Positions 2,206-42,442 of a stretch of 42,442 nucleotides of DNA are shown here, one piece after another. The translations under genes were made by a program, and so were the position numbers. How positions within the stretch are numbered: position 1 is the stretch's first letter; each line of letters begins with the position of its first letter. Source of the DNA: Thermoproteota archaeon (GTDB taxonomy: Archaea; Korarchaeota; Korarchaeia; Korarchaeales; Korarchaeaceae); contig JAOZGP010000032.1 of the NCBI GenBank assembly GCA_027491735.1, positions 1 through 42,442 on the forward strand. The letters run 5' to 3'. Below the pieces are notes generated by a model. The model was not told the DNA's origin. It saw nothing but the letters and a program-made list of their open reading frames with translations, and did not search any database.

Positions 2206-3516
2206 TTGATCCTAGGTTCGCTTGGGTCTAGGCTTAACAGAGCCATAAACAAGCTCTTAGGAAAACCAACTGTGGATGAAAGAGCGATAAATGAGTTTCT
2301 TCTGGAGATTCAGAGAGCTCTTTTGGAGGCAGACGTCAACGTAAAGCTTGTTCTAAAGATTAGCAGAAGAATAAAGGAGAGGGCCCTCAAAGAAAAGCTT
2401 CCCCCAACAGTTTCGAGAAAGGACTACGTCATTAAGTTGTTGTATGATGAGCTGGTTAATCTTCTTGGGGGGAAGAAACCCCTCTTCAAGATCAGAGGAA
2501 AAAGCACAAAGATTCTTCTGGTCGGTGTGGAGGGATCAGGAAAGACCACCACAGCCGCTAAACTCGCTAAGTACTTCAAGAAGAGATTTGGTAGAGTCGC
2601 TCTGATATCCTCCGATGTGATAAGGCCTGCCTCTCACATACAACTGGCCGACATGGTCCGAGAGGAGGAAATACCTGTATTTTGGAAGGAAAATGCGACG
2701 GCGGCGGAGATAATAGGAGAGGGTCTGGAGAGGTTTAAGAACTATAATGTGATCCTCATAGATACCGCTGGAAGGCATAAGGACGAGCAGGGGCTCATGA
2801 ATGAGCTGAGGGAATACTTTGAGATCACAAAACCTGATCACGTTCTACTCGTTCTGGATGCTACAATAGGTCAAGCAGCCCTCAAACAGGCCAAAGCATT
2901 TAAAGAGATGGTTCCTCTCGGAGGAGCAATCATAACGAAACTTGATGGATCAGCTAAAGGAGGAGGAGCTCTCTCAGCGGTCGCCGAAGCCGGTGTTCCA
3001 GTATATTTCGCCGGAGTTGGAGAGAAGATAGACGACCTGGAGAGATTTGACGCTGGAAAGTTCCTATCCAGGCTCATGGGGATGGGAGATCTGGAAGGTC
3101 TCATCGATAGGATAGATCATGCTATCGAGGAAAGTGAGCTCTTGGAGAAAATGAGCTCTGGCAAGTTTGATATGGACGACTTCAGGCAGTATGTAAAGGG
3201 GCTTGAAAGGATGGGTCCGCTTGATCATCTGATAAGCATGCTTCCTGGGATCAAGATTCCCAGCGATAGGATTCTGGCTGTGGGTGAGGAATCTCTGAGG
3301 AAGTGGGATGCAATAATAAACTCAATGACACCCGAGGAGAGGAGGGATCCCTCCCTTATAAGAGGAGCCAGGATAGCGAGGATAGCTAGAGGAGCAGGTG
3401 CCACCCAGGGAGATGTGAGAAACCTTCTCAGAGCATATAACCAGATGAGAGCTTTTCTCAGTGGAAAGAGAGTTCCCAGACTACTAAGAGGCCTAATGAA
3501 GAGGTATGGAATGTGA
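2206..3516 (+). CDS. srp54: Signal recognition particle protein SRP54
   Basis: GVEGSGKTTT, DTAGRH and TKLDGSAKGGG GTPase motifs; M-domain SMTPEER and RIARGAG. Confidence 0.97.
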   Translation: MILGSLGSRLNRAINKLLGKPTVDERAINEFLLEIQRALLEADVNVKLVLKISRRIKERALKEKLPPTVSRKDYVIKLLYDELVNLLGGKKPLFKIRGKSTKILLVGVEGSGKTTTAAKLAKYFKKRFGRVALISSDVIRPASHIQLADMVREEEIPVFWKENATAAEIIGEGLERFKNYNVILIDTAGRHKDEQGLMNELREYFEITKPDHVLLVLDATIGQAALKQAKAFKEMVPLGGAIITKLDGSAKGGGALSAVAEAGVPVYFAGVGEKIDDLERFDAGKFLSRLMGMGDLEGLIDRIDHAIEESELLEKMSSGKFDMDDFRQYVKGLERMGPLDHLISMLPGIKIPSDRILAVGEESLRKWDAIINSMTPEERRDPSLIRGARIARIARGAGATQGDVRNLLRAYNQMRAFLSGKRVPRLLRGLMKRYGM

Positions 3517-4694
3517 ACAGTCCGACGAAGCCGTTCTTTTTGGAAGAGAAGTTCTGTAGCTTCTGTCTTGGTAGTCTCATGGGTGCTCCAACCAAGATGC
3601 CTGGATGGATCCGGGGAAAAGCTCTCCTTTCGGTCTTAGGCCTAGAAGATGGGAATTGTTCATGTTGTGGGGATCTCTTTTTGTCCTCCATAGACGAAAT
3701 GCTCGAAGAAGCGCTCAAACTTATCAGAAAATATGAGTTCAGTTCGGTAAAGTCCGGCGCTGTTATCCCCCCTCTGATCATCGAGAAGTTGGATAGGTTG
3801 AGAGCTCTCCATGGACTGATGGATGCCGAATCCATTAAAGTCACTGTGACAGGATATCTGGACATGGAGCTCTTCAGGAGATTGAGGACGGACATAAGCT
3901 ACGATCCGGATGTCCTCCTACTCTTCGACTTTAAAAGAAGAAAGGTCTCTACCTGGATAAAGCCAGTGTACGTATACGGAAGATACCGAAAATTGAAGAG
4001 AGGAATCTCCCAGTCCAGATGGGTATGCTCTTGGTGTAGAGGGAGGGGTTGTGAGAGGTGTGGATATTCTGGATACAAGTACCCTCTATCCGTTGAGAGA
4101 TTAATAGGAGAGCCCATGAAGGAGATCTTCAAAGCGAGTGATTACAAGATCCACGGCGCAGGAAGAGAAGATATCGATGTCAGGATGCTGGGAAGAGGAA
4201 GACCGTTCATTATGGAGGTATTAAATCCCAGAAGAAGATCTGTAGATCTAAGAGAGTTGGAGAGAATCATAAATGAGAGAGGAGAAGGTAAAGTGGAGGT
4301 CTTGGACTTGAGGTTAACCGATAAAAAGGAGATAGTTTCCCTTAAGAGGGCTCACGCGCGGAAGATCTACAGGATCAAGGTACAGGTCGAGAACTTCACC
4401 GAGAAGGAAGCTAAGATTTTAGAGGAAAAACTCTCTGGAGCTGAGATAAGACAGAGGACGCCGATCAGGGTTTTAGGAAGAAGGGCAGATAGAATAAGAA
4501 GGAGAAAGGTTTACGAGTTTAGGGTGGAGAGGTTTGACAGGGATGGATTCACAGCAGTCTTATCATGTGATGGGGGTTTATATATTAAAGAGCTGATATC
4601 TGGAGATGAGGGAAGAACCTCACCCAGTGTGAGCGAGCTCCTGAACAAAAAGGCTAAATTTGTTGAACTGGATGTTATGGATGTCCTGATATAG
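3513..4694 (+). CDS. pus10: tRNA pseudouridine(54/55) synthase Pus10
   Basis: YGRYRKLKRGISQ, HGAGREDIDVRMLG, QRTPIRV and GGLYIKELISGD motifs. Confidence 0.95.
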   Translation: MNSPTKPFFLEEKFCSFCLGSLMGAPTKMPGWIRGKALLSVLGLEDGNCSCCGDLFLSSIDEMLEEALKLIRKYEFSSVKSGAVIPPLIIEKLDRLRALHGLMDAESIKVTVTGYLDMELFRRLRTDISYDPDVLLLFDFKRRKVSTWIKPVYVYGRYRKLKRGISQSRWVCSWCRGRGCERCGYSGYKYPLSVERLIGEPMKEIFKASDYKIHGAGREDIDVRMLGRGRPFIMEVLNPRRRSVDLRELERIINERGEGKVEVLDLRLTDKKEIVSLKRAHARKIYRIKVQVENFTEKEAKILEEKLSGAEIRQRTPIRVLGRRADRIRRRKVYEFRVERFDRDGFTAVLSCDGGLYIKELISGDEGRTSPSVSELLNKKAKFVELDVMDVLI

Positions 4695-6774: not shown

Positions 6775-8319
6775 ATGGAGAGAAAGGGATATGTCATAGA
6801 CGACACAGTTCTATCTTACGGACTGCTCTCTAAAACAGAGCTAAAAAATTATGACATAATAGTACCCCTCTCAACGATCAAACGCCTCGAAAAACTCGCT
6901 GAGAGAGGAGATAGAATCGCGGTAAATGGCATGAAAGAGCTCATCAGGCTCAGAAAACAACTAAAGGATCGGGTGCTTGTGGAAGAGATGAGAGGAGATG
7001 ACGTTGATTCCATTTACGAGCTTTGTAAGAAACACAACGCCACGGCCCTAACTGGAAACGCTCTTAGAGCTACAGCACTGCACTCCAGAGGAGTTAAAGT
7101 CATCTATCTCGGACCTGTGGAAAAAGAAAAGCCGTCTGTCCTTGATCTCTTCGATGAAGATACCATGAGTGTTCATCTCAAGGAAGATGCGCCGATCTAT
7201 GCTAAGAAAGGAGAGCCCGGAAACTTTAGACTGGTTAAAATAAGGGAGAATCCTCTCGGAGAGGGAGAGATTCTCAGGATGGCCTACGAGATCCTGGAAT
7301 ATGCTAGAACCAGCTCGGATGCCATGATAGAGATAAGATCAGAAGGAGCGTACCTCATACAGATAGGAGAGTATAGGGTTCTGCTGGCTTTTCCTCCTTT
7401 CTCGGATGGAATAGAGATAACAGCTGTTAGACCCATTGTCAAAGTATCCCTGGAGGACTACTCCTTGAGCGACAGGCTGATCAAAAGACTTAGGGAGAGA
7501 GCTGAAGGAATAGTCATAGCAGGTCCCCCTGGAGCAGGAAAGACCACTTTTGCCAGTGCCCTAGCCGAGTTCTATAGGAAAGATGGGAAGATTGTCAAAA
7601 CCATGGAATCCCCGAGAGATTTATTCGTCGGTCCTGAGATAACTCAGTATGGAAAGCTCGACGGCTCCTTTGAGAAGACGGCCAGCATCCTGTTACTGGT
7701 AAGACCGGACTATGTGATATTCGACGAAATGAGAGTCTCCGAGGACTTCGCTATATTCACCGACATGAGATCTGCTGGGATAGGCATGGTCGGCGTGGTC
7801 CATTGTGGAGCTCCGATAGAGGCCATACAGAGATTTATAAGAAGAGTGGACCTCGGTCTTCTTCCGCATGTGGTCGACACACTAATCTTCATAAAAGATG
7901 GGAGAGTGGAGAAGGTATACAGCCTGAAAATAGCTGTTAAGCTTCCACGTGGAATGAAGGATAGAACTCTAGCTAGGCCCGTAGTGCTGGTCACTGATTT
8001 CGAGACGGGCAAGCATGAATATGAAATCTATACCTTTGGAGATGAGATCGTGATCATGCCCGTCAAGGGGAAGGGAGAGAAGTATCTTGAAGAGGAGCAG
8101 CTCAGATTCAGTGTGATAAAGAGGAAGAACTCTGTGATCGTATCATTGGGTAGAGAGATGGCAGGAAGTGAGGTGACCCTCTACTCCGGAGAGGAGGAGC
8201 TCGTAACGACTAGAGCTGATGAGAAGGGGAGAATCGTGCTTGCCAGAAGAAGTCCTGTAGGAAGAGCTATACTAGATGCCGCCAAAAGAGGGACTCTTTC
8301 TGTCAAGGCGTCCTCTTAG
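6775..8319 (+). CDS. PIN domain + P-loop ATPase (PINA / COG1855 family)
   Basis: Degenerate N-terminal PIN domain, Walker A GPPGAGKTT, TMESPRDL, LLVRPDYVIFDEMR and GMVGVVH. Confidence 0.9.
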   Translation: MERKGYVIDDTVLSYGLLSKTELKNYDIIVPLSTIKRLEKLAERGDRIAVNGMKELIRLRKQLKDRVLVEEMRGDDVDSIYELCKKHNATALTGNALRATALHSRGVKVIYLGPVEKEKPSVLDLFDEDTMSVHLKEDAPIYAKKGEPGNFRLVKIRENPLGEGEILRMAYEILEYARTSSDAMIEIRSEGAYLIQIGEYRVLLAFPPFSDGIEITAVRPIVKVSLEDYSLSDRLIKRLRERAEGIVIAGPPGAGKTTFASALAEFYRKDGKIVKTMESPRDLFVGPEITQYGKLDGSFEKTASILLLVRPDYVIFDEMRVSEDFAIFTDMRSAGIGMVGVVHCGAPIEAIQRFIRRVDLGLLPHVVDTLIFIKDGRVEKVYSLKIAVKLPRGMKDRTLARPVVLVTDFETGKHEYEIYTFGDEIVIMPVKGKGEKYLEEEQLRFSVIKRKNSVIVSLGREMAGSEVTLYSGEEELVTTRADEKGRIVLARRSPVGRAILDAAKRGTLSVKASS

Positions 8320-8845
8320 GATCGCTGCATATCTTCTTTATTCTCTTCTCAAAGTTCAATTCATCCAAGAAAGAGAGTACAGAAGGTGGGACAAGATCTC
8401 TCCAGAGAGAATCGCCCTTTAGTATAAGGGTTCTTATCCTCGTAGCGCTGAGATCCTCCCTTCTGTAGAAGGGAATCCCTTCAACTTTAATCCCGACGGC
8501 TTGAAGGTCTCTCATGGTTTCGAAGTCATTGGAAAAAGCCATGTCTATCCTGGGAACTCTGTCAAGGACTATTTTCCCCCAGTTCTCGTTGGGACTTTCG
8601 GTATCCGGTATTGGAACTATAGATATTCTTCTTAGCGGAAAATTCTCGCCCCTCAAGGCTCTAACAATCATCTCCATTCTCTCTCCAACATCCAGTGGAT
8701 TTCTGGGTGTATGGCTGTGTTGGGAGCTTCCTATGCCTATTACCATCTCGTCGACCTTCTCGAGAACATACCTAAAACAATAGAGGTGACCGTAGTGGAG
8801 AGGTTGAAAACGACCGACCATAAGAGCTCTGGAGCACATGAACAT
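8303..8845 (-). CDS. nadM: Nicotinamide-nucleotide adenylyltransferase
   Basis: GRFQPLHYGH, GIGSSQ, NP...GER and SATRIR motifs. Confidence 0.93.
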   Translation of the reverse strand: MFMCSRALMVGRFQPLHYGHLYCFRYVLEKVDEMVIGIGSSQHSHTPRNPLDVGERMEMIVRALRGENFPLRRISIVPIPDTESPNENWGKIVLDRVPRIDMAFSNDFETMRDLQAVGIKVEGIPFYRREDLSATRIRTLILKGDSLWRDLVPPSVLSFLDELNFEKRIKKICSDPKRTP

Positions 8846-9776: not shown

Positions 9777-10498
9777 GTGATCGAGAGTATCCCAGTAGAC
9801 CTATTGTCGCTGTCGGAATAGTCATTATAAGGGATGGCCGAGTTCTTCTCGTCAAGCGGGCTCACGATCCTGGAAGAGGTACCTGGGCAATACCTGGAGG
9901 AGTTGTGGAGGGCGAGTCTCTACAGGAAGCAGTTAGAAGAGAGGCTTTGGAGGAGCTTGGAGTGAAAGTAGCTCCTAGATTTCCAATTTGGGTGAGCGAA
10001 GTCATCCAGAGAGATGAAGGGGGGAGGAGAAGGTATCACTACGTTATAGTGGACTTCTTGTGTGATCTGGTGGAAGGAAATCCTTCTCCTCGAGATGATG
10101 CCCTCGACCTGGGATGGTTTAATATCGAGAAGCCACCTGATAAGCTAACTGAATCCACTAGAGAGCTGATAGGGGTTCTATCAAGAAGAATTCTCATCGT
10201 GAGGAACTCTGACGTTAGAGAGGTTCTCGTAGGAGCTCCAGAGGGCCATCTCCATAAGAGGACCGTGTTCGTTCTAAACGACGGGATGAAAATAGTTTTA
10301 CAAGAAGCGACCATGGAGAATGTCGCTAGGGCTATTGTAAATGTTGAGATGCATCCTTTTAGAAAATACATCCTGTTAAAAGGGAGGAGGATATCGAAGA
10401 GGGAGAGGAAGAGGGGATATGATGAGTACCAGCTATTGGAGGAGGAAGTTGATGAGGAGGACGTGAAAAGGAGGATATCGAAGGTTCTATGCGAGTGA
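9773..10498 (+). CDS. NUDIX hydrolase (ADP-ribose pyrophosphatase-like) fused to a conserved archaeal domain of unknown function
   Basis: Nudix box GGVVEGESLQEAVRREALEELG, followed by about 100 aa containing PEGHLH, QEAT and HP...YQLLEE. Confidence 0.85.
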   Translation: MSDREYPSRPIVAVGIVIIRDGRVLLVKRAHDPGRGTWAIPGGVVEGESLQEAVRREALEELGVKVAPRFPIWVSEVIQRDEGGRRRYHYVIVDFLCDLVEGNPSPRDDALDLGWFNIEKPPDKLTESTRELIGVLSRRILIVRNSDVREVLVGAPEGHLHKRTVFVLNDGMKIVLQEATMENVARAIVNVEMHPFRKYILLKGRRISKRERKRGYDEYQLLEEEVDEEDVKRRISKVLCE

Positions 10499-11502
10499 GA
10501 GTTAAGCGTCTGATCAGGATCGGTAAGGAGAGCTCCGTTCCACTTATAGGAACACCATTTTTCGGAGTGATAGATAGAGGAACGAACCTCATTCAGGTGA
10601 GACCTACATCAGTTTGTTCTCTGTCGTGTATATTCTGCTCAACCGATGCAGGTCCGAGATCTAGGATGAGGATAGCGGAGTATCTGGTGGATCTGAATTA
10701 CCTGATAGAGTATGTGGAGATGCTGTGCAGAATCAAAGGTGGTGGTGTGGAGGCCCATATAGATACCGTGGGCGATCCCTTCGCCTATCCCAAAATCGTG
10801 GAGCTCATCAGAAGGCTTAGGGAGATTCCCGAGATAGAAGTAATATCAGCCCAGACTCATGGCCCGCTTCTGACTCCCCGTCTCATAGAAGAGCTGGAGA
10901 AAGCAGGTATGGATAGAATAAACTTGAGTATAGACTCGCTGAATGAGGAAAAAGCTAGATATCTGTCGGGGACCGAATGGCTTAAGCTTAGCAGGATACT
11001 AGAAGTCGCTAAGAGAATAGCCGAGAGCTCGATAGACCTTCTGGTAGCTCCAGTGTGGGTTCCTGGGATAAACGATGAGGACATTCCTCAGATCATTCAG
11101 TTCGCTCTGTCCATAGGGGCCGGAAAGAAATGGCCCCCACTTGGCATCCAGAAATATGAGATGTATAGGAGAGGAAGAAAGGTCAGGGTCAGGGAGATGA
11201 GCTGGAGGAGATTCTATTCCGAGTTGAGAAAATGGGAGGAGGAGTTCGGGGTTAAGCTGATAATAGGTCCGAGTGATTTTGGTATAAGAAGAGCTCCGAC
11301 CATTTCTTCCCCCTATAAGCAAGGAGAAGTGATAGAAGTAAAGATCAAATTCCCAGGTCCAAGAAAGGGAGAGATTATTGGAACCACTCGTGAGCGGTCG
11401 ATCATATTGACCGGTCTAGGCTTCCTTCCCAGGGAGGCAGCGATCAGGATCAGGATCTTGAGGAGTCATCACAATCTCTTCGTCGGTATTCCAATAATTT
11501 AA
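10489..11502 (+). CDS. Archaeal radical SAM protein (COG2100-like) with a C-terminal TRAM-like beta domain
   Basis: FGVIDRGTNLIQVRP followed by CxxxCxxC (CSLSCIFC). Confidence 0.88.
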   Translation: MRVRVKRLIRIGKESSVPLIGTPFFGVIDRGTNLIQVRPTSVCSLSCIFCSTDAGPRSRMRIAEYLVDLNYLIEYVEMLCRIKGGGVEAHIDTVGDPFAYPKIVELIRRLREIPEIEVISAQTHGPLLTPRLIEELEKAGMDRINLSIDSLNEEKARYLSGTEWLKLSRILEVAKRIAESSIDLLVAPVWVPGINDEDIPQIIQFALSIGAGKKWPPLGIQKYEMYRRGRKVRVREMSWRRFYSELRKWEEEFGVKLIIGPSDFGIRRAPTISSPYKQGEVIEVKIKFPGPRKGEIIGTTRERSIILTGLGFLPREAAIRIRILRSHHNLFVGIPII

Positions 11503-38443: not shown

Positions 38444-38517
38444 GGGCCCGTAGCTCAGTATGGTAGAGCGCCCGGCTCTTAACCGGGAGGTCGCGGGTTC
38501 GAAGCCCGTCGGGCCCG
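38444..38517 (+). tRNA. tRNA-Lys(CTT)
   Basis: GGGCCCG acceptor stem, CCCGG-CTCTTAA-CCGGG anticodon arm and GGTTCGAAGCCC T-arm. Confidence 0.96.
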
Positions 38518-38579
38518 CTCTCCACACACATTCGGCAAAGTATCAGATCCTTCTCCAGAAGTGATTTGGGAACCTTCGC

Positions 38580-38666
38580 GCGGCCGTGGTCTAGCCTGGA
38601 CAGGATGTGGGCCCCCCATCTCCTGGGGGAGAGCCCAAGACCCGGGTTCAAATCCCGGCGGCCGCA
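38580..38666 (+). tRNA. tRNA-Gly(CCC) with a 13-nt intron at 37/38 (38619-38631)
   Basis: GCGGCCG/CGGCCGC-A Gly-type acceptor and TGGGC/GCCCA anticodon stem. BHB motif: CCCC:GGGG central helix with CA^T and AG^A bulges. Confidence 0.9.
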
Positions 38667-39214: not shown

Positions 39215-39496
39215 ATGCCTAAACCAAATCTTGGAAAAACTGAAACAATTAAGAAGAGAACTGTCTACATTTACCTTCCTTCTGAAGAGATGATGAAGGA
39301 ATGGAAGGAAAGAGCTGAGAAGGAGGGAGTCTCGCTATCAAAATTTGTTATTGAGAGGGTTGAGGATTCAATAAGGAAAGAAGAAGATAATGCTTATCTG
39401 GCAAGACTTGAGTTAATAAATAGGTTAAGAGAGATTGAAGAAGAGAACAGAAGATTGAGAGAGGAAAACAAAACTGGTTTGTGGAGGGCTGGATGA
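39215..39496 (+). CDS. Ribbon-helix-helix-like DNA-binding protein with coiled coil, possibly truncated
   Basis: Beta strand TVYIYLP, then helices EWKERAEKEGVSLSKFVIERV, then a heptad-rich tail. Confidence 0.65.
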   Translation: MPKPNLGKTETIKKRTVYIYLPSEEMMKEWKERAEKEGVSLSKFVIERVEDSIRKEEDNAYLARLELINRLREIEEENRRLREENKTGLWRAG

Positions 39497-39505
39497 GGTG
39501 GTGGG

Positions 39506-39751
39506 ATGGATTATCTGATCCTTATTGTCGGTCTGCTTTTGCTTGCTCTCCTAATTTTACTTTGGAAGTATGCTGAGCTTAAAGGCAGGATAGAGCAGAG
39601 AGCAAGACAGATATTTGAAGAATGGCAAGAAAGAGAGCTTGAAATCATATCAAAAAGGAGAGCAGAAATTCTTTTGCATGTTGTTCAACAAACTTTCTGT
39701 GTAATTTCCCCAGATCATGAATTAAAGCCCCAATCTCAGCAAGCAAAATAG
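39506..39751 (+). pseudogene. N-terminal fragment of a membrane-anchored Holliday-junction-resolvase-like endonuclease, truncated at about 39675
   Basis: TM segment and RIEQRARQIFEEW helical segment typical of that family (recalled). The last ~24 codons are the antisense strand of the cas10 stub, and no nuclease domain follows. Confidence 0.55.
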
Positions 39752-39800
39752 CATCCCTGTTTTCCACCAACTTCTTCAGCTTCTCACTTCCCCATAGCAC
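39645..39800 (-). pseudogene. cas10: cas10 (type III-C, Csx11) N-terminal HD-domain remnant (not in the ORF track)
   Basis: Manual translation: GSEKLKKLVENRDAILLAEIGALIHDLGKLHRKFVEQHAKE, with HD at 39714-39719. It matches the recalled Csx11 N-terminus and is cut off at about 39670. Confidence 0.8.
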
Positions 39801-40553
39801 ACCACCCAGAAACCTCATTCACATCATCAAAAACTGCATTGAAATCAGGCAGATCCTTTAACTGATGCCTGAGCGAGCTTTCCCAGGCATTTCTGAAATC
39901 CTCTTTTCTGTTCAATAAACCATCAAAATCAGGTTCAACTCCTTTAAACCTGGACTTTTGGTTCACAGCAGAAACATCAAGCCCGAGTTTTGAAAGATAC
40001 CATACATCATATAAGTCTCTTGGTCTCATTCTCTGAAATAATGCCCTGATCTTCTCTGCAAAGATCTCCTGAAGTGTGTAAGTCAAAACTTCTGCATTGC
40101 AGTCATCAGAATAAGGATGGATGATTTTTCTTCTCTCCAGCGGGAGAAGTATAACTTCATTCTCCCTTTTTGTTATGTCTATTTTTATCCTTAAGGGATT
40201 GCCTGCTCTTCTCAGAATTCTAAAATAGACTGCAACCTCATATCCGTTCTCGACTTCCCTAAACTTAATGTCCTCATCAAAATCAATTCCACTCCTCCTT
40301 TTTGCCTCTCTCACAGCTTTAACAATTAATTCCTTTACTTTATCTACTTCCATATCTTCAAGCAATGTGAAATCCAGATCATCTGAGAATCTATAATCTC
40401 CAATATACACCTTCCTAATGCCTGTTCCACCTTTTAACGCCATATTAAGCGATAGAGAAGATAAAAGCCAGTTTTGAGCGTAATCTCCTCAACAGTAGTT
40501 TCCGGCACACCACTTTTCCTTGCAAACTCCCTTATTTCAAGTTCGGGGATCAT
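39784..40553 (-). pseudogene. abiEii: AbiEii-family nucleotidyltransferase toxin, frameshifted at about 40487
   Basis: ATG 40553 overlaps the abiEi stop. MIPELEIREFARKSGVPETTVE is followed, one base out of frame, by DYAQNWLL...LKGGT...YRFSDDLDF...EKIRAL...RDLYD. Confidence 0.88.
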
Positions 40554-41296
40554 TCTAACTCACCGATGTCAAGGTTGATTATCAACCTCCACCTGCCATT
40601 AGCTTTGCCCTTCTTAGGCATCGTAGGATCAAGAAGCAGGTAATTCTTCGCCCTAACTTCAGGCAGACCAATCTGCAGGCCAAGAACATCACACAGGTAA
40701 CCAAGCCTTCTTATAACTCCAGAATTTCCGATTTTTAGGGCATATCCTGATAATTTTTCAAAATCAAATTCACCATTACTTAAAGCCTTTGCAACCTCAA
40801 TCACTCCCCCGCAGTATTTTGGCTTATCCAGACAATCAACGATTGTTTTTTCTCTGTCTGTCACATTAACCTGAAATTCATCAAGCCATACTCTCTCAAT
40901 CCCAAAGAGCTTCTCTTCCTTTATTTTAACAATCTTATACCTTACCCCAAATATCTCCAATTCCTGCCTCTTCTTCCTCGAAGTTGTTTGAACAAAAAAA
41001 GTTGTGGGTATTTGCTCCGTTAAGCCATGATAGTTGAGGGCTGACCAGTAGGCAATCGCCGATGGATTTACAAGCAAGGAACCAATAACGAATTCGTTCA
41101 GTGTGTATTCTCCCCTCCTCGCACCAAGCGGTATCACCATGTATTTGCCTTTCTCTATTCTCTCAACCCATCCCTTCTTTTCCAATCTTGAAAGGAGGAC
41201 CTTCAGAACATTCTTATCGATACCGCTGATTTTCACAGCTTCTTCAACCGTGAATACCTTCTTTCTTGCTAATTCATCAAGCATCTTTATTCTCAT
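40550..41296 (-). CDS. abiEi: AbiEi-family antitoxin / transcriptional regulator
   Basis: N-terminal wHTH (RLEKKGWVERIEKGKY), AYWSALNYHGLTEQIP and TDREKTIVDCL. Intact ORF. Confidence 0.9.
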   Translation of the reverse strand: MRIKMLDELARKKVFTVEEAVKISGIDKNVLKVLLSRLEKKGWVERIEKGKYMVIPLGARRGEYTLNEFVIGSLLVNPSAIAYWSALNYHGLTEQIPTTFFVQTTSRKKRQELEIFGVRYKIVKIKEEKLFGIERVWLDEFQVNVTDREKTIVDCLDKPKYCGGVIEVAKALSNGEFDFEKLSGYALKIGNSGVIRRLGYLCDVLGLQIGLPEVRAKNYLLLDPTMPKKGKANGRWRLIINLDIGELE

Positions 41297-41323
41297 TTTG
41301 ATACACCATAATTAACAATTCTG

Positions 41324-42426
41324 TTAACTTTGGTGTATGATGTTGAGAATTTCCTTAACTTCATTGCTTTTGAAACCATCTACCTTGATGTCATTATTGT
41401 TTATTTGTTCAACAACTCCGAAACCGCTCGACTTTTTGGCTGAAAAGCCGATTTCGTAAAACATCTTTCGCAGTGCTTTTGATAGAAATTCTAAATCCTT
41501 TTGAACTTCTGATTTTTCATGTTCTTGAGCGTTGGGATTTATTCTAAATTCGTTAAACTTTCCTTTAGCTATTAAGTCGAATGGGTAGTAGAGCAATCTG
41601 AACACACCTTCCGCTCTTTCAGGAACTGTTTCAAAGTAAATTGGTCCTTTCACAGGTGTTCTGGTTTCTCTGCTTAGAGGTGTTATAACATCAAGTGAGA
41701 TCTCTTCAAAGAAGGTTGGGTAGAAGAACAGCCTTCCAGATCTTGAGGGAATATCTTTTGAAACGATTTTTTCGTCAATAAGCCACTTATCAAATTCTTT
41801 GTTAATCTTGTCGATTTCTTCTTTTAGCTTTTTCCCTGCTGGAAGCTCTCCTTCTATCGCCAGCAAACACAACTTTCCCAAATACTCTTCCTGGGAATCT
41901 TTTTCGTTACCGAACAGCTTTACAATCCTCACTCTTTCCCTGAATACAGTTTCCTTATCGAGTTTTGATTTGTTCAGTTTTTCGTGTATCTAATCCTCAA
42001 AAACCTTTATTGCAGCGAACCTCAAAGCTCCTTTCTATGTTGTCGCCCTAACCATCGGAAGCTTGAAGACCTTGTCTTTTACGGTTGGATTATCTATTAT
42101 GTAGAATTCATCGTCGTCTCTGCTGAGGTATGGTTTTTTGAGGATGAATTTGATTTGAATGTAGGTTGAATATTTTGGTAAACCACTATTTGTGATTTTT
42201 AATGTAGTATCTGCAAGCTGTTTTTTTATTCTTTAACGTTATTCTCCACTTCTTTTGTTTAAACCAGTTCATGTATCTTTCTCTTGCTCTCTCCTTAATT
42301 TTTATTAAGCATCAACAAGTGCGACCTAAGCCATAACTCTTCTATGTCGATTCTTTCCAATACCTGAAAGTTAACTCCGTATTTACTGTCCCAAAACCAA
42401 GAATAGATATCATATACATCATTCAT
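41324..42426 (-). pseudogene. cmr6: Type III-C Cmr6-like RAMP (Cas7 group) pseudogene
   Basis: GAGGTGA SD and ATG 42426 (MNDVYDIYSW). Then FILKKPYLSRDDDEFYIIDNPTVKDKVFKLPMVRATT*KGALR, LFFYPTFF, GPIYFETVP and the G-rich loop GFSAKKSSGFG. In-frame TAG codons at 42035-42037 and 41990-41992, plus frame disruptions at about 42230-42300. Confidence 0.87.
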
Positions 42427-42442
42427 TCTTACTCACCTCTAA

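Follow-up and report, generated by a model that had tools for sequence, protein, structure and literature searches.

AbiE toxin-antitoxin genes inside the remnant of an archaeal type III-C CRISPR-Cas operon

Background

AbiE systems, which are classed as type IV toxin-antitoxin systems and act in abortive infection, pair an antitoxin-repressor, AbiEi, with a nucleotidyltransferase toxin, AbiEii, and have been studied in Lactococcus and Streptococcus agalactiae. Their autoregulation operates through inverted repeats upstream of abiEi. Here we describe an AbiE pair in the final 2.8 kb of a 42,442-bp contig (JAOZGP010000032.1, contig C29 in our numbering) of a Thermoproteota archaeon, where it lies between the remains of cmr6 and of the cas10 gene csx11 in what is left of a type III-C CRISPR-Cas effector operon. 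This contig, taken whole, is called the window below. The embedded genes resemble known AbiE systems in belonging to the same two Pfam families, in overlapping as a bicistronic ATGA, and in the palindrome that precedes abiEi, which an autorepressor would lead one to expect; plasmid homologues that are 48% identical are named AbiEi and AbiEii in RefSeq. They differ in being archaeal and in residing inside a CRISPR effector operon, where the end of the pair overlaps the start of cas10. In addition, the toxin gene of the window is frameshifted.

That toxin genes and toxin-antitoxin (TA) modules occur near CRISPR loci is well recognised. The coupling of immunity and toxins in these loci is treated as an established idea in passages of PMC3506569 and PMC3710099, and in the former as a coupling to dormancy or suicide. 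Among guards of cas genes only CreTA is understood mechanistically; it consists of RNA and is found with type I systems, and PMC9458426 and PMC8501985 describe it as an RNA toxin-antitoxin under CRISPR control through which cells become addicted to Cascade. Embedded AbiE, likewise a TA module within a cas locus, could exact a cost when the locus is lost, a parallel drawn in an initial reading of the window (hereafter the original prediction). The analogy is loose. As PMC9458426 describes the system, toxin (CreT) and antitoxin (CreA) are both RNAs, repression by CreA depends on the Cas effector (Cascade), and any cas mutation is punished, whereas both AbiE components are protein-coding and the pair has a putative operator of its own. 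Moreover, cas genes decay with the pair intact in one related locus (L021; loci, genomes and contigs carry the prefixes L, G and C throughout), and the pair decays with cas genes intact in another (L023). The window contains no CreTA-type direct repeats.

MNT-HEPN pairs, which include MntA-HepT (type VII) and are treated in PMC3710099, also invite comparison. In sister III-C loci such pairs take up the very cmr6|csx11 position that AbiE holds here, III-B operons have them at other positions, and they too consist of two genes, one of which encodes a pol-beta-type nucleotidyltransferase. In these pairs the transferase is the antitoxin and the HEPN protein the toxin, whereas the AbiE transferase is the toxin; beyond the transferase fold the families are unrelated. 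Csm6 and Csx1, ancillary CARF-HEPN effectors, are growth-arresting RNase modules that are likewise encoded inside type III loci. They are activated by cyclic oligoadenylate (cOA) from Cas10, whereas AbiE and MNT-HEPN pairs lack a CARF sensor and Csx11-type Cas10 lacks the cyclase motif. In a motif search of six Csx11 relatives, the HD motif was found in five and a GGDD-like motif in the Palm region in none, and a passage of PMC3150331 refers to an 'inactivated Cas10 (Csx11 subfamily)'.

The wider pattern of embedded TA pairs presented below appears to be little described. In the portion of PMC6546367 cited here, no TA pairs emerged from a screen for type III accessory genes; a three-member 'nucleotidyl trans.' cluster is listed for III-B and III-C, and Shah & Garrett 2013 is cited for TA pairs that co-evolve with adjacent archaeal type III modules. 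The cited portion of a 2025 review of TA-CRISPR coupling (PMC12737573) makes no mention of AbiE or MNT-HEPN inside type III operons. Our literature search found no description of AbiE or MNT-HEPN pairs inside III-C operons, although neighbourhood tables in supplements to these papers and to those on CRISPR classification may already list them.

Results and discussion

Remains of a III-C operon around an intact abiEi gene

III-C operons have the gene order cmr1-cmr6-cas10-cmr4-cmr5-cmr3 in the published classification. From this order the window retains only the tail of cmr1, a cmr6 pseudogene and a cas10 stub, and the AbiE genes lie between the last two (Table 1). The layout given in the original prediction, namely four minus-strand units with a 27-nt spacer, an ATGA overlap and a stub that starts inside abiEii, is confirmed by the coordinates. 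The cmr6 stop codon (TAA, 41326-41324) lies 27 nt from the abiEi ATG at 41296. The abiEi stop codon (TGA, 40552-40550) overlaps the abiEii start codon (ATG, 40553-40551) as ATGA, and the same overlap is present in L015, L021, L025 and G056. The open reading frame (ORF) of the stub begins before the end of abiEii at 39784.

The abiEi product matches both AbiEi_4 (PF13338, E = 2.6e-9) and AbiEi_1 (PF09407, E = 4.6e-5) above their cut-offs and scores 20.9 bits against NCBIfam TAA_AbiEi, which has a cut-off of 150. It is predicted to be an antitoxin and transcriptional regulator. Its partner, abiEii, has suffered a 1-nt deletion at codon 23 (about 40486-40487) in non-repetitive sequence. A tblastn alignment with the AbiEii of G056 places codons 1-22 (40553-40488) in frame -3 and codons 24-251 (40485-39805) in frame -2.

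The RAMP gene upstream is more heavily damaged. Frame changes near 42300 and 42225, both at A-runs, divide it into three frame segments, and in-frame TAG codons at 42037-42035 and 41992-41990 each stand opposite a Trp of its relatives (TGG-to-TAG). Aligned by tblastn with the intact Cmr6 of L022, the three segments are 75% identical over 301 residues. When read through its stops the sequence matches Pfam RAMPs (8.1e-14), and against the Cmr4, Csm3 and Cmr6 models it scores weakly, short of their cut-offs. The name cmr6 used in the original prediction is therefore upheld by position, which is that of cmr6 in canonical III-C relatives, and not by the Cmr6 profile. The 16 nt of cmr1 next to it were matched to the Cmr1 of L022 by eye, being too short to score.

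The stub on the other side of the pair had been proposed to be cas10/Csx11, and a hidden Markov model search does give a hit to Csx11, below the cut-off: it matches TIGR02682 with an E-value of 6.1e-9 and 34.7 bits (cut-off 248.95) over profile positions 2-38 of 1007, and it retains the HD motif. The Csx11 proteins of relatives exceed that cut-off. A DNA alignment with six relatives places the canonical csx11 ATG at 39795-39793; after it, 7 inserted nucleotides shift the gene out of frame. Homology to the Csx11 of G056 (tblastn) stops near 39702, after about 30 codons, so that about 1000 of roughly 1070 codons are missing. Here the stub abuts a plus-strand ORF that represents the first third of an Endonuc_Holl-family gene and whose 3' part is antisense csx11. 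A deletion with its junction at about 39680-39702 has thus fused two truncated genes.

Only abiEi is intact among the four units, and the region is, as judged from its reading frames, a pseudogenised relic with an orphan gene for the predicted antitoxin.

Table 1. Features of the window, with coordinates on the 42,442-nt contig
Feature	Coordinates	Strand	Basis or remarks	Open reading frames
cmr1, final codons and stop	42427..42442	-	Frame-0 end ...EVSKNE plus stop, overlapping the cmr6 ATG; compare the L022 Cmr1 end, ...EVSKER plus stop	
cmr6-position RAMP (Cas7-like) pseudogene	42426-41324	-	Two frameshifts, two in-frame TAGs	43 aa, 42426-42295; 202 aa (RAMP), 41932-41324
Putative AbiEi operator and promoter	41308..41327	-	Palindrome 41327-41312 and TATA-like octamer 41315-41308	
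abiEi, intact, winged helix-turn-helix (wHTH) and AbiEi C-terminal domain	41296-40550	-	Pfam AbiEi_4, AbiEi_1	248 aa, 41296-40550
abiEii, nucleotidyltransferase toxin pseudogene	40553-39784	-	Pfam AbiEii PF08843, 5.9e-32 (219-aa ORF)	219 aa, 40443-39784
csx11 (type III-C cas10) 5' stub, start of HD domain	39703..39818	-	NCBIfam Csx11 TIGR02682	57 aa, 39818-39645
Truncated Endonuc_Holl-like ORF	39506..39751	+	Pfam PF10107, 1.7e-5, profile positions 2-49 of 159	
tRNA-Lys	38444-38518	+	ARAGORN	
tRNA-Gly	38580-38666	+	ARAGORN	

The same gene order in other genomes

A set of 83 loci was examined, three of them from a scan of species genomes with the window RAMP and the others being the best 80 of 82 from a metagenome scan with a four-sequence Cmr6 alignment. 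They were annotated by tblastn and phmmer with seed proteins drawn from these same loci. Metagenome and genome counts overlap (L014 = L017 = G052:C20; L016 = L034 = G054:C136; L030 = G115:C37) and are not independent. abiEi and abiEii directly follow cmr6 in six of the 83 loci (L015, L021, L022, L023, L025 and L089). Csx11 is present in 10 of the 96 genomes of the class to which L014 belongs, and two of these carry the pair: G053, on two contigs, and G056. Counting the window, G001 and a scar in L029, the order cmr6-abiEi-abiEii-csx11 has 11 occurrences. The synteny is not confined to the window, and an arrangement that recurs in this way in other contigs and genomes is more than chance.

The best-preserved example lies on a 170-kb contig of G056, where cmr6 (399 aa), abiEi (248 aa), abiEii (254 aa), csx11 (1078 aa), cmr4, cmr5 and cmr3 follow one another and are all open. 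Overlaps of 4 nt join cmr6 to abiEi, abiEi to abiEii, and abiEii to csx11. The Csx11 (364.7 bits), Cmr1 and Cmr4 proteins of this locus score above NCBIfam cut-offs. The full order cmr1-cmr6-cas10-cmr4-cmr5-cmr3 is seen in L016, L023, L026 and G056, with Cmr1 and Cmr4 above the same kind of cut-off. Co-transcription of the pair with the effector genes, as originally proposed, is made plausible by the overlaps in G056. The operon is without function in the window genome, where abiEi alone is intact. The G056 locus also has type I cas genes and two further MNT/HEPN pairs upstream, and cas3 downstream.

The pair is fully visible and intact in L015, L021 and G056, and open as far as it can be seen in L025 and G053:C26. 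It is broken in the window, L089, L022, L023, G001 and L029. In L089 the toxin gene is cut at codon 59 and the downstream cas genes have been replaced. L022 and L023 share an internal deletion of the pair, and csx11-cmr4-cmr5-cmr3 is still open in L023. L029 has no AbiE genes and carries a 57-nt scar built of both ends of the cassette. G001, which belongs to the same genus as the window genome, has a more eroded copy that keeps the RAMP C-terminus and has abiEi reduced to its two ends. Two of these independently eroded relics have a similar protein, with a putative DNA-binding/ATP-binding N-terminus, encoded beside the AbiE remnant (L089 1871-3253; L011, from G001, 1861-2853). L089 has a separate MNT-HEPN-like pair at 3425-4002.

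Relatives of the embedded antitoxin were also sought on mobile elements. No AbiEi relative was found in viral contigs, where two pattern matches yielded none that was confirmed. Among plasmids, 55 records match AbiEi, all at less than 60% identity, the best being a Thermococcus barophilus plasmid at 48%.

A predicted operator and promoter upstream of abiEi

The original prediction saw little room for a separate abiE promoter. This does not hold: the spacer and the last cmr6 codons accommodate a palindrome and a TATA-like octamer, and standalone abiE operons have the same architecture. The palindrome consists of two 6-nt arms and a 4-nt centre and overlaps both the cmr6 stop codon and the octamer. 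Its arms are invariant in eight of nine embedded copies, with one arm mismatch in G001, and its centre is variable. The 27-nt spacer and the final cmr6 codons are conserved above the level of the flanking coding sequence, and a conserved block spans from the TATA-like octamer up to the abiEi ATG. The standalone abiE operons of L007 (G028), L008/L012 (G022) and Thermococcus barophilus plasmid pTBMP1 have palindromes at the same position with other self-complementary arms, together with the same conserved block. Covarying arms around a free centre are the signature of a site for a dimeric DNA-binding protein, and AbiEi, which we take to be a wHTH autorepressor, is the obvious candidate to bind this predicted operator.

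From the end of the TATA-like box to the second ATG of abiEi there are 23 nt, a spacing that would suit an archaeal promoter whose mRNA has little or no leader. The imported control region takes in the last codons of cmr6 and its stop; in G056, cmr6 enters this region in another frame and ends on the abiEi ATG. Judging from these arrangements, read-through from the cas promoter and an internal start controlled by AbiEi are both likely. A second AbiEi-type palindrome considered upstream of cmr1 in G056 was rejected, as the pattern is found once in L113.

Probable capture of the AbiE cassette, its selection and its decay

In a quick maximum-likelihood tree of Cmr6 (69 rows, with 15 near-duplicates of at least 95% identity collapsed; 68 clusters), the window, L015, L021, L025, L022 and L023 form one clade with SH-aLRT support of 92, and L029 is nested inside it. 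Because the left and right boundaries of the cassette are identical in every copy, it was likely captured in a single event, between cmr6 and csx11. AbiEi of the window is 85-90% identical to the embedded copies in L015, L021, L025 and L089. Embedded AbiEi copies are 85-92% identical to each other and about 54% identical to standalone copies in relatives.

Both genes bear the marks of purifying selection. Nei-Gojobori ratios of nonsynonymous to synonymous substitution (dN/dS) are 0.05-0.21 over 15 pairs of abiEi and 0.10-0.24 over 10 pairs of abiEii, at dS values of up to 1.3, and abiEi of the window gives 0.05-0.08 against five other copies. Two loci, the window and L089, have just one of the two genes broken, and both times the toxin is affected; none of the 11 occurrences combines an intact toxin gene with a broken antitoxin gene. 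Toxin-first breakage of this kind is what a live TA pair should show as it decays.

MNT-HEPN pairs at the same junction of III-C loci

AbiE genes are not the only TA genes in this position. In 69 of the 83 loci it can be seen which gene comes after cmr6: csx11 in 40, an MNT nucleotidyltransferase gene in 16, abiEi in 6 and cmr4 in 7. A HEPN gene follows the MNT gene wherever the contig continues. Overall, 22 of the 69 loci have a TA pair after cmr6 (16 MNT-HEPN, 6 AbiE); Pfam confirmation was obtained on 10 proteins. The distribution over junctions is uneven. TA pairs lie between cmr6 and csx11 in 11 of the 51 loci in which both genes are visible, to which 11 loci with the contig ending inside or after the pair are added, and between cmr5 and cmr3 in 4 of 33. 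None was detected at cmr1|cmr6 (0/66), csx11|cmr4 (0/37) or cmr4|cmr5 (0/38). MNT-HEPN pairs at cmr6|csx11 are found in L019 (2339-3051), L028 (2321-3030), L030 (6804-7522) and L114 (G090; about 10157-10839), and further in L045, L055, L057, L058, L061, L062, L066, L087 and L090-L094.

The archaeal embedded HEPN proteins form one lineage, in which D replaces the His of the motif. Between III-C loci they are 70-87% identical, compared with 53-63% for Cmr6 and 35-61% for Csx11. When HEPN of L019 was used to query the 96 genomes, two embedded copies matched at 87% and 80%, and the next best of about 70 hits at 47%. Mapping the MNT state onto the Cmr6 tree requires at least six changes. These patterns speak for long co-inheritance of the embedded MNT-HEPN pair with the operon and many losses. 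Recurrent independent capture from the host's own pool of MNT-HEPN pairs is not favoured for the archaeal clade, given embedded HEPNs that are 80-87% identical to that of L019 and a next best match of 47%. Direct replacement of MNT-HEPN by AbiE is plausible.

Three variations on these layouts were observed. Related MNT-HEPN pairs lie between cmr5 and cmr3 in L035, L036, L037 (about 7145-8386) and L042 (6858-7527); they are sister to the cmr6|csx11 pairs in the HEPN tree, a placement that suggests relocation of MNT-HEPN within the operon. High-GC III-C loci (L090 6641-7582, L094 6641-7852, L093 and L061) have two nucleotidyltransferase genes before the HEPN gene, one of which is often a 67-70-aa remnant. 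The doubling looks as if TA pairs had entered one junction one after another and decayed there. Finally, a clade comprising L069, L071, L080, L084-L086 and L095 has a different layout, with cmr4 directly after cmr6 and no cas10 between them.

TA pairs in III-B operons

III-B operons served as a control. Cmr2-type Cas10 is encoded in 19 of the 96 genomes, and the operon is visible from cmr2 to cmr4 in 12 of these 19 regions. An MNT-HEPN-type pair is present in seven of the 12, four times before cmr4 and three times between cmr2 and cmr3. The pair is the best conserved part of these operons: HepT is 68-82% and MntA 65-77% identical, versus 40-73% for Cmr proteins. Embedded TA pairs are a general habit of these archaeal type III modules and are not specific to III-C, which does not support the tie to III-C made in the original prediction. 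The idea that a TA pair in III-C replaces lost cOA signalling is weakened by the same seven operons, some of which have the pair beside a Csm6 gene.

The window genome itself has such a locus. On contig C27 (67892-69769; L145 9893-11770), genes for a Csm6-type CARF-HEPN protein, MntA (99 aa) and HepT (114 aa) and cmr4 lie in a row, and the HepT gene overlaps the start of cmr4. Elsewhere, the III-B loci L156, L157 and L159 (G134, G130 and G132) encode a 167-169-aa MNT and a 112-145-aa HEPN protein between cmr2 and cmr3, a third preferred junction. Contig C37 of G115 (L110, L150; the contig of L030) holds both kinds of module, a III-C operon with MNT-HEPN at about 19.7-26 kb and a III-B operon with MntA-HepT at about 38-45 kb.

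Explanations for the embedded pair

On balance, and with some reserve, we favour the reading that positions 39.6-42.4 kb of the window are a dead remnant of a horizontally acquired III-C operon, that a complete AbiE cassette with its own regulation entered the ancestor of this operon once, at the cmr6|csx11 junction, and that the cassette was a live TA rider that probably stabilised the module. In loci of the G056 type the pair, with overlaps on both sides, would be read through from the cas promoter. The AbiEi-controlled promoter and operator upstream of abiEi would also have been retained, as their conservation suggests, and transcripts from there would run on into csx11-cmr4-cmr5-cmr3. AbiEii would act as a growth-arresting nucleotidyltransferase held in check by AbiEi. 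The antitoxin could then not be lost safely, and the pair would persist with the operon and tend to stabilise it as it moves between hosts. The pair would be one variant of the archaeal type III habit of keeping an internal TA pair, most often MNT-HEPN. In the window genome the toxin gene, cmr6 and csx11 would have decayed, and CRISPR defence would rest on the separate III-B locus of C27. The AbiE arrangement is a genuine, selected-for and repeatedly decaying variant of the wider pattern; its role may be that of an addiction module, a selfish rider or an abortive-infection arm.

Several observations weigh against this account. Five lineages have lost or broken the pair (the window, G001, L022/L023, L029 and L089), which argues that it is dispensable and no strong guard; the frequent clean losses, as in L023, L029 and sister pairs of loci, likewise point to dispensability. 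The Cmr6 fragment of L089 (86 aa) falls outside the AbiE clade, a placement that is unreliable. No locus combines an intact AbiE pair with a demonstrably complete operon: in G056 cmr1 is split into overlapping ORFs of 179 and 237 aa (L113 6041-7290), as the result of a frameshift or of faulty assembly; in L021 cmr1 and cmr6 are fused and cmr6 is truncated; and csx11 of L015 stops at 196 aa. The names cmr5 and cmr3 are positional, since no model recognises the protein taken as Cmr5 and the one taken as Cmr3 is hit by the general RAMP superfamily model and no other, and Cmr6 is also assigned by position. TA genes were detected by phmmer with our own seed proteins, which makes the TA counts minimum values confined to the families seeded. 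Both read-through and an internal promoter are predictions, and the two cmr6 frameshifts of the window could be assembly errors, as they fall in A-runs.

It is possible, if somewhat unlikely, that the pair was instead a selected working arm of III-C immunity, acting as an abortive-infection back-up, as a guard when the operon is silenced or inhibited, or through an AbiEi promoter that sets the expression of csx11-cmr4-cmr5-cmr3, with AbiE and MNT-HEPN interchangeable in a functional slot. Two unrelated TA families at the same cmr6|csx11 junction, stop and start codons that overlap on both sides of the pair, and the strong bias towards two junctions (11/51 and 4/33, versus zero at the three others) would all fit such an arm. 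So would the conservation of the embedded HEPN and MNT proteins, which exceeds that of the Cas proteins, and the single lineage of archaeal embedded HEPNs. Since Csx11 keeps HD and lacks GGDD, a cOA-independent toxin arm would also make sense. However, the pair is often missing in close sisters (L014/L018 versus L019; L026 versus L028) and has been lost as a scar with the cas genes intact (L023, L029). III-B operons that encode a Csm6-type CARF-HEPN protein carry MntA-HepT as well, so compensation for lost cOA signalling is not specific, and purifying selection and co-inheritance are also expected of a selfish addiction module. A more speculative proposal, which we consider unlikely, is that archaeal type III operons have a conserved TA slot whose resident, MNT-HEPN, MntA-HepT or (after displacement) AbiE, is an integral, co-evolving part that is better conserved than Cas subunits. 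It would make dormancy or suicide depend on the expression or integrity of the operon, as a counterpart of CreTA/CrePA made of protein, and the AbiEi promoter would also drive csx11-cmr4-cmr5-cmr3.

Other explanations concern the decay itself. A chimeric contig end or homopolymer and consensus errors might have produced it, and the organism would then have an intact cmr6-abiE-csx11 operon. The region makes up the final 3 kb of its contig in an 88%-complete, 41-contig assembly, contigs often break at foreign or repeated DNA, and both cmr6 frameshifts are in A-runs. We nevertheless regard an artefact as very unlikely: the other lesions are not in homopolymers (the two TGG-to-TAG changes, the 1-nt deletion in abiEii, the 7-nt insertion, and the fusion of csx11 at codon ~30 to a truncated gene on the opposite strand), the assembly contains neither the remainder of csx11 nor cmr4, cmr5 or cmr3, and G001, from the same genus, has an independently eroded copy. 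That the four units form a working operon in the window genome, by read-through or recoding of TAG and bypass of the frameshifts, is extremely improbable. Both in-frame stops of cmr6 are TAG, a possible hint of recoding; yet TAG is an ordinary stop that ends 118 of the 543 long ORFs in the genome, and both TAGs replace a conserved Trp codon, so recoding is rejected. At least four further lesions break the frame, and csx11 lacks about 1000 codons. The preferred reading remains that of a dead remnant of an operon that once carried a live pair.

The window by itself is a modest result, a decaying foreign fragment with an orphan antitoxin gene. This relic led to natural loci in which protein TA pairs reside inside type III operons at preferred junctions, with overlapping frames, are co-inherited with them and are more conserved than Cas proteins. 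Such loci offer a testable system for how horizontally mobile CRISPR modules are stabilised, and for whether type III systems without cOA signalling reach dormancy by another route.

Genomic setting of the relic

The window is one of the 41 contigs of a 1.36-Mb genome bin that is 88% complete. Because the window is the whole contig, the operon runs off its end. The remainder of csx11, and cmr4, cmr5 and cmr3, are found nowhere in this assembly; the stub is the sole Csx11 match in the genome, and the three other RAMP matches are all within the C27 locus. No CRISPR array was detected in a scan of all 42,442 nt of the window. The single array detected genome-wide is on C27, at about 49.8-58.9 kb, beside the separate and open III-B locus.

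The III-C fragment was probably acquired horizontally. GC content is 0.39-0.40 at 39-42 kb, versus 0.42-0.53 across the rest of the window, none of 39 other genomes of the host's class has a Csx11 match, and in the species-genome scan the closest relatives of its Cmr6 were in Archaeoglobaceae metagenome-assembled genomes. The low-GC block that holds the relic follows the tRNA-Lys and tRNA-Gly genes (38444..38666). Within this block, just left of the deletion junction, a 93-aa ORF (39215-39496, plus strand) has weak ribbon-helix-helix or Arc-like matches and may belong to the same foreign fragment.

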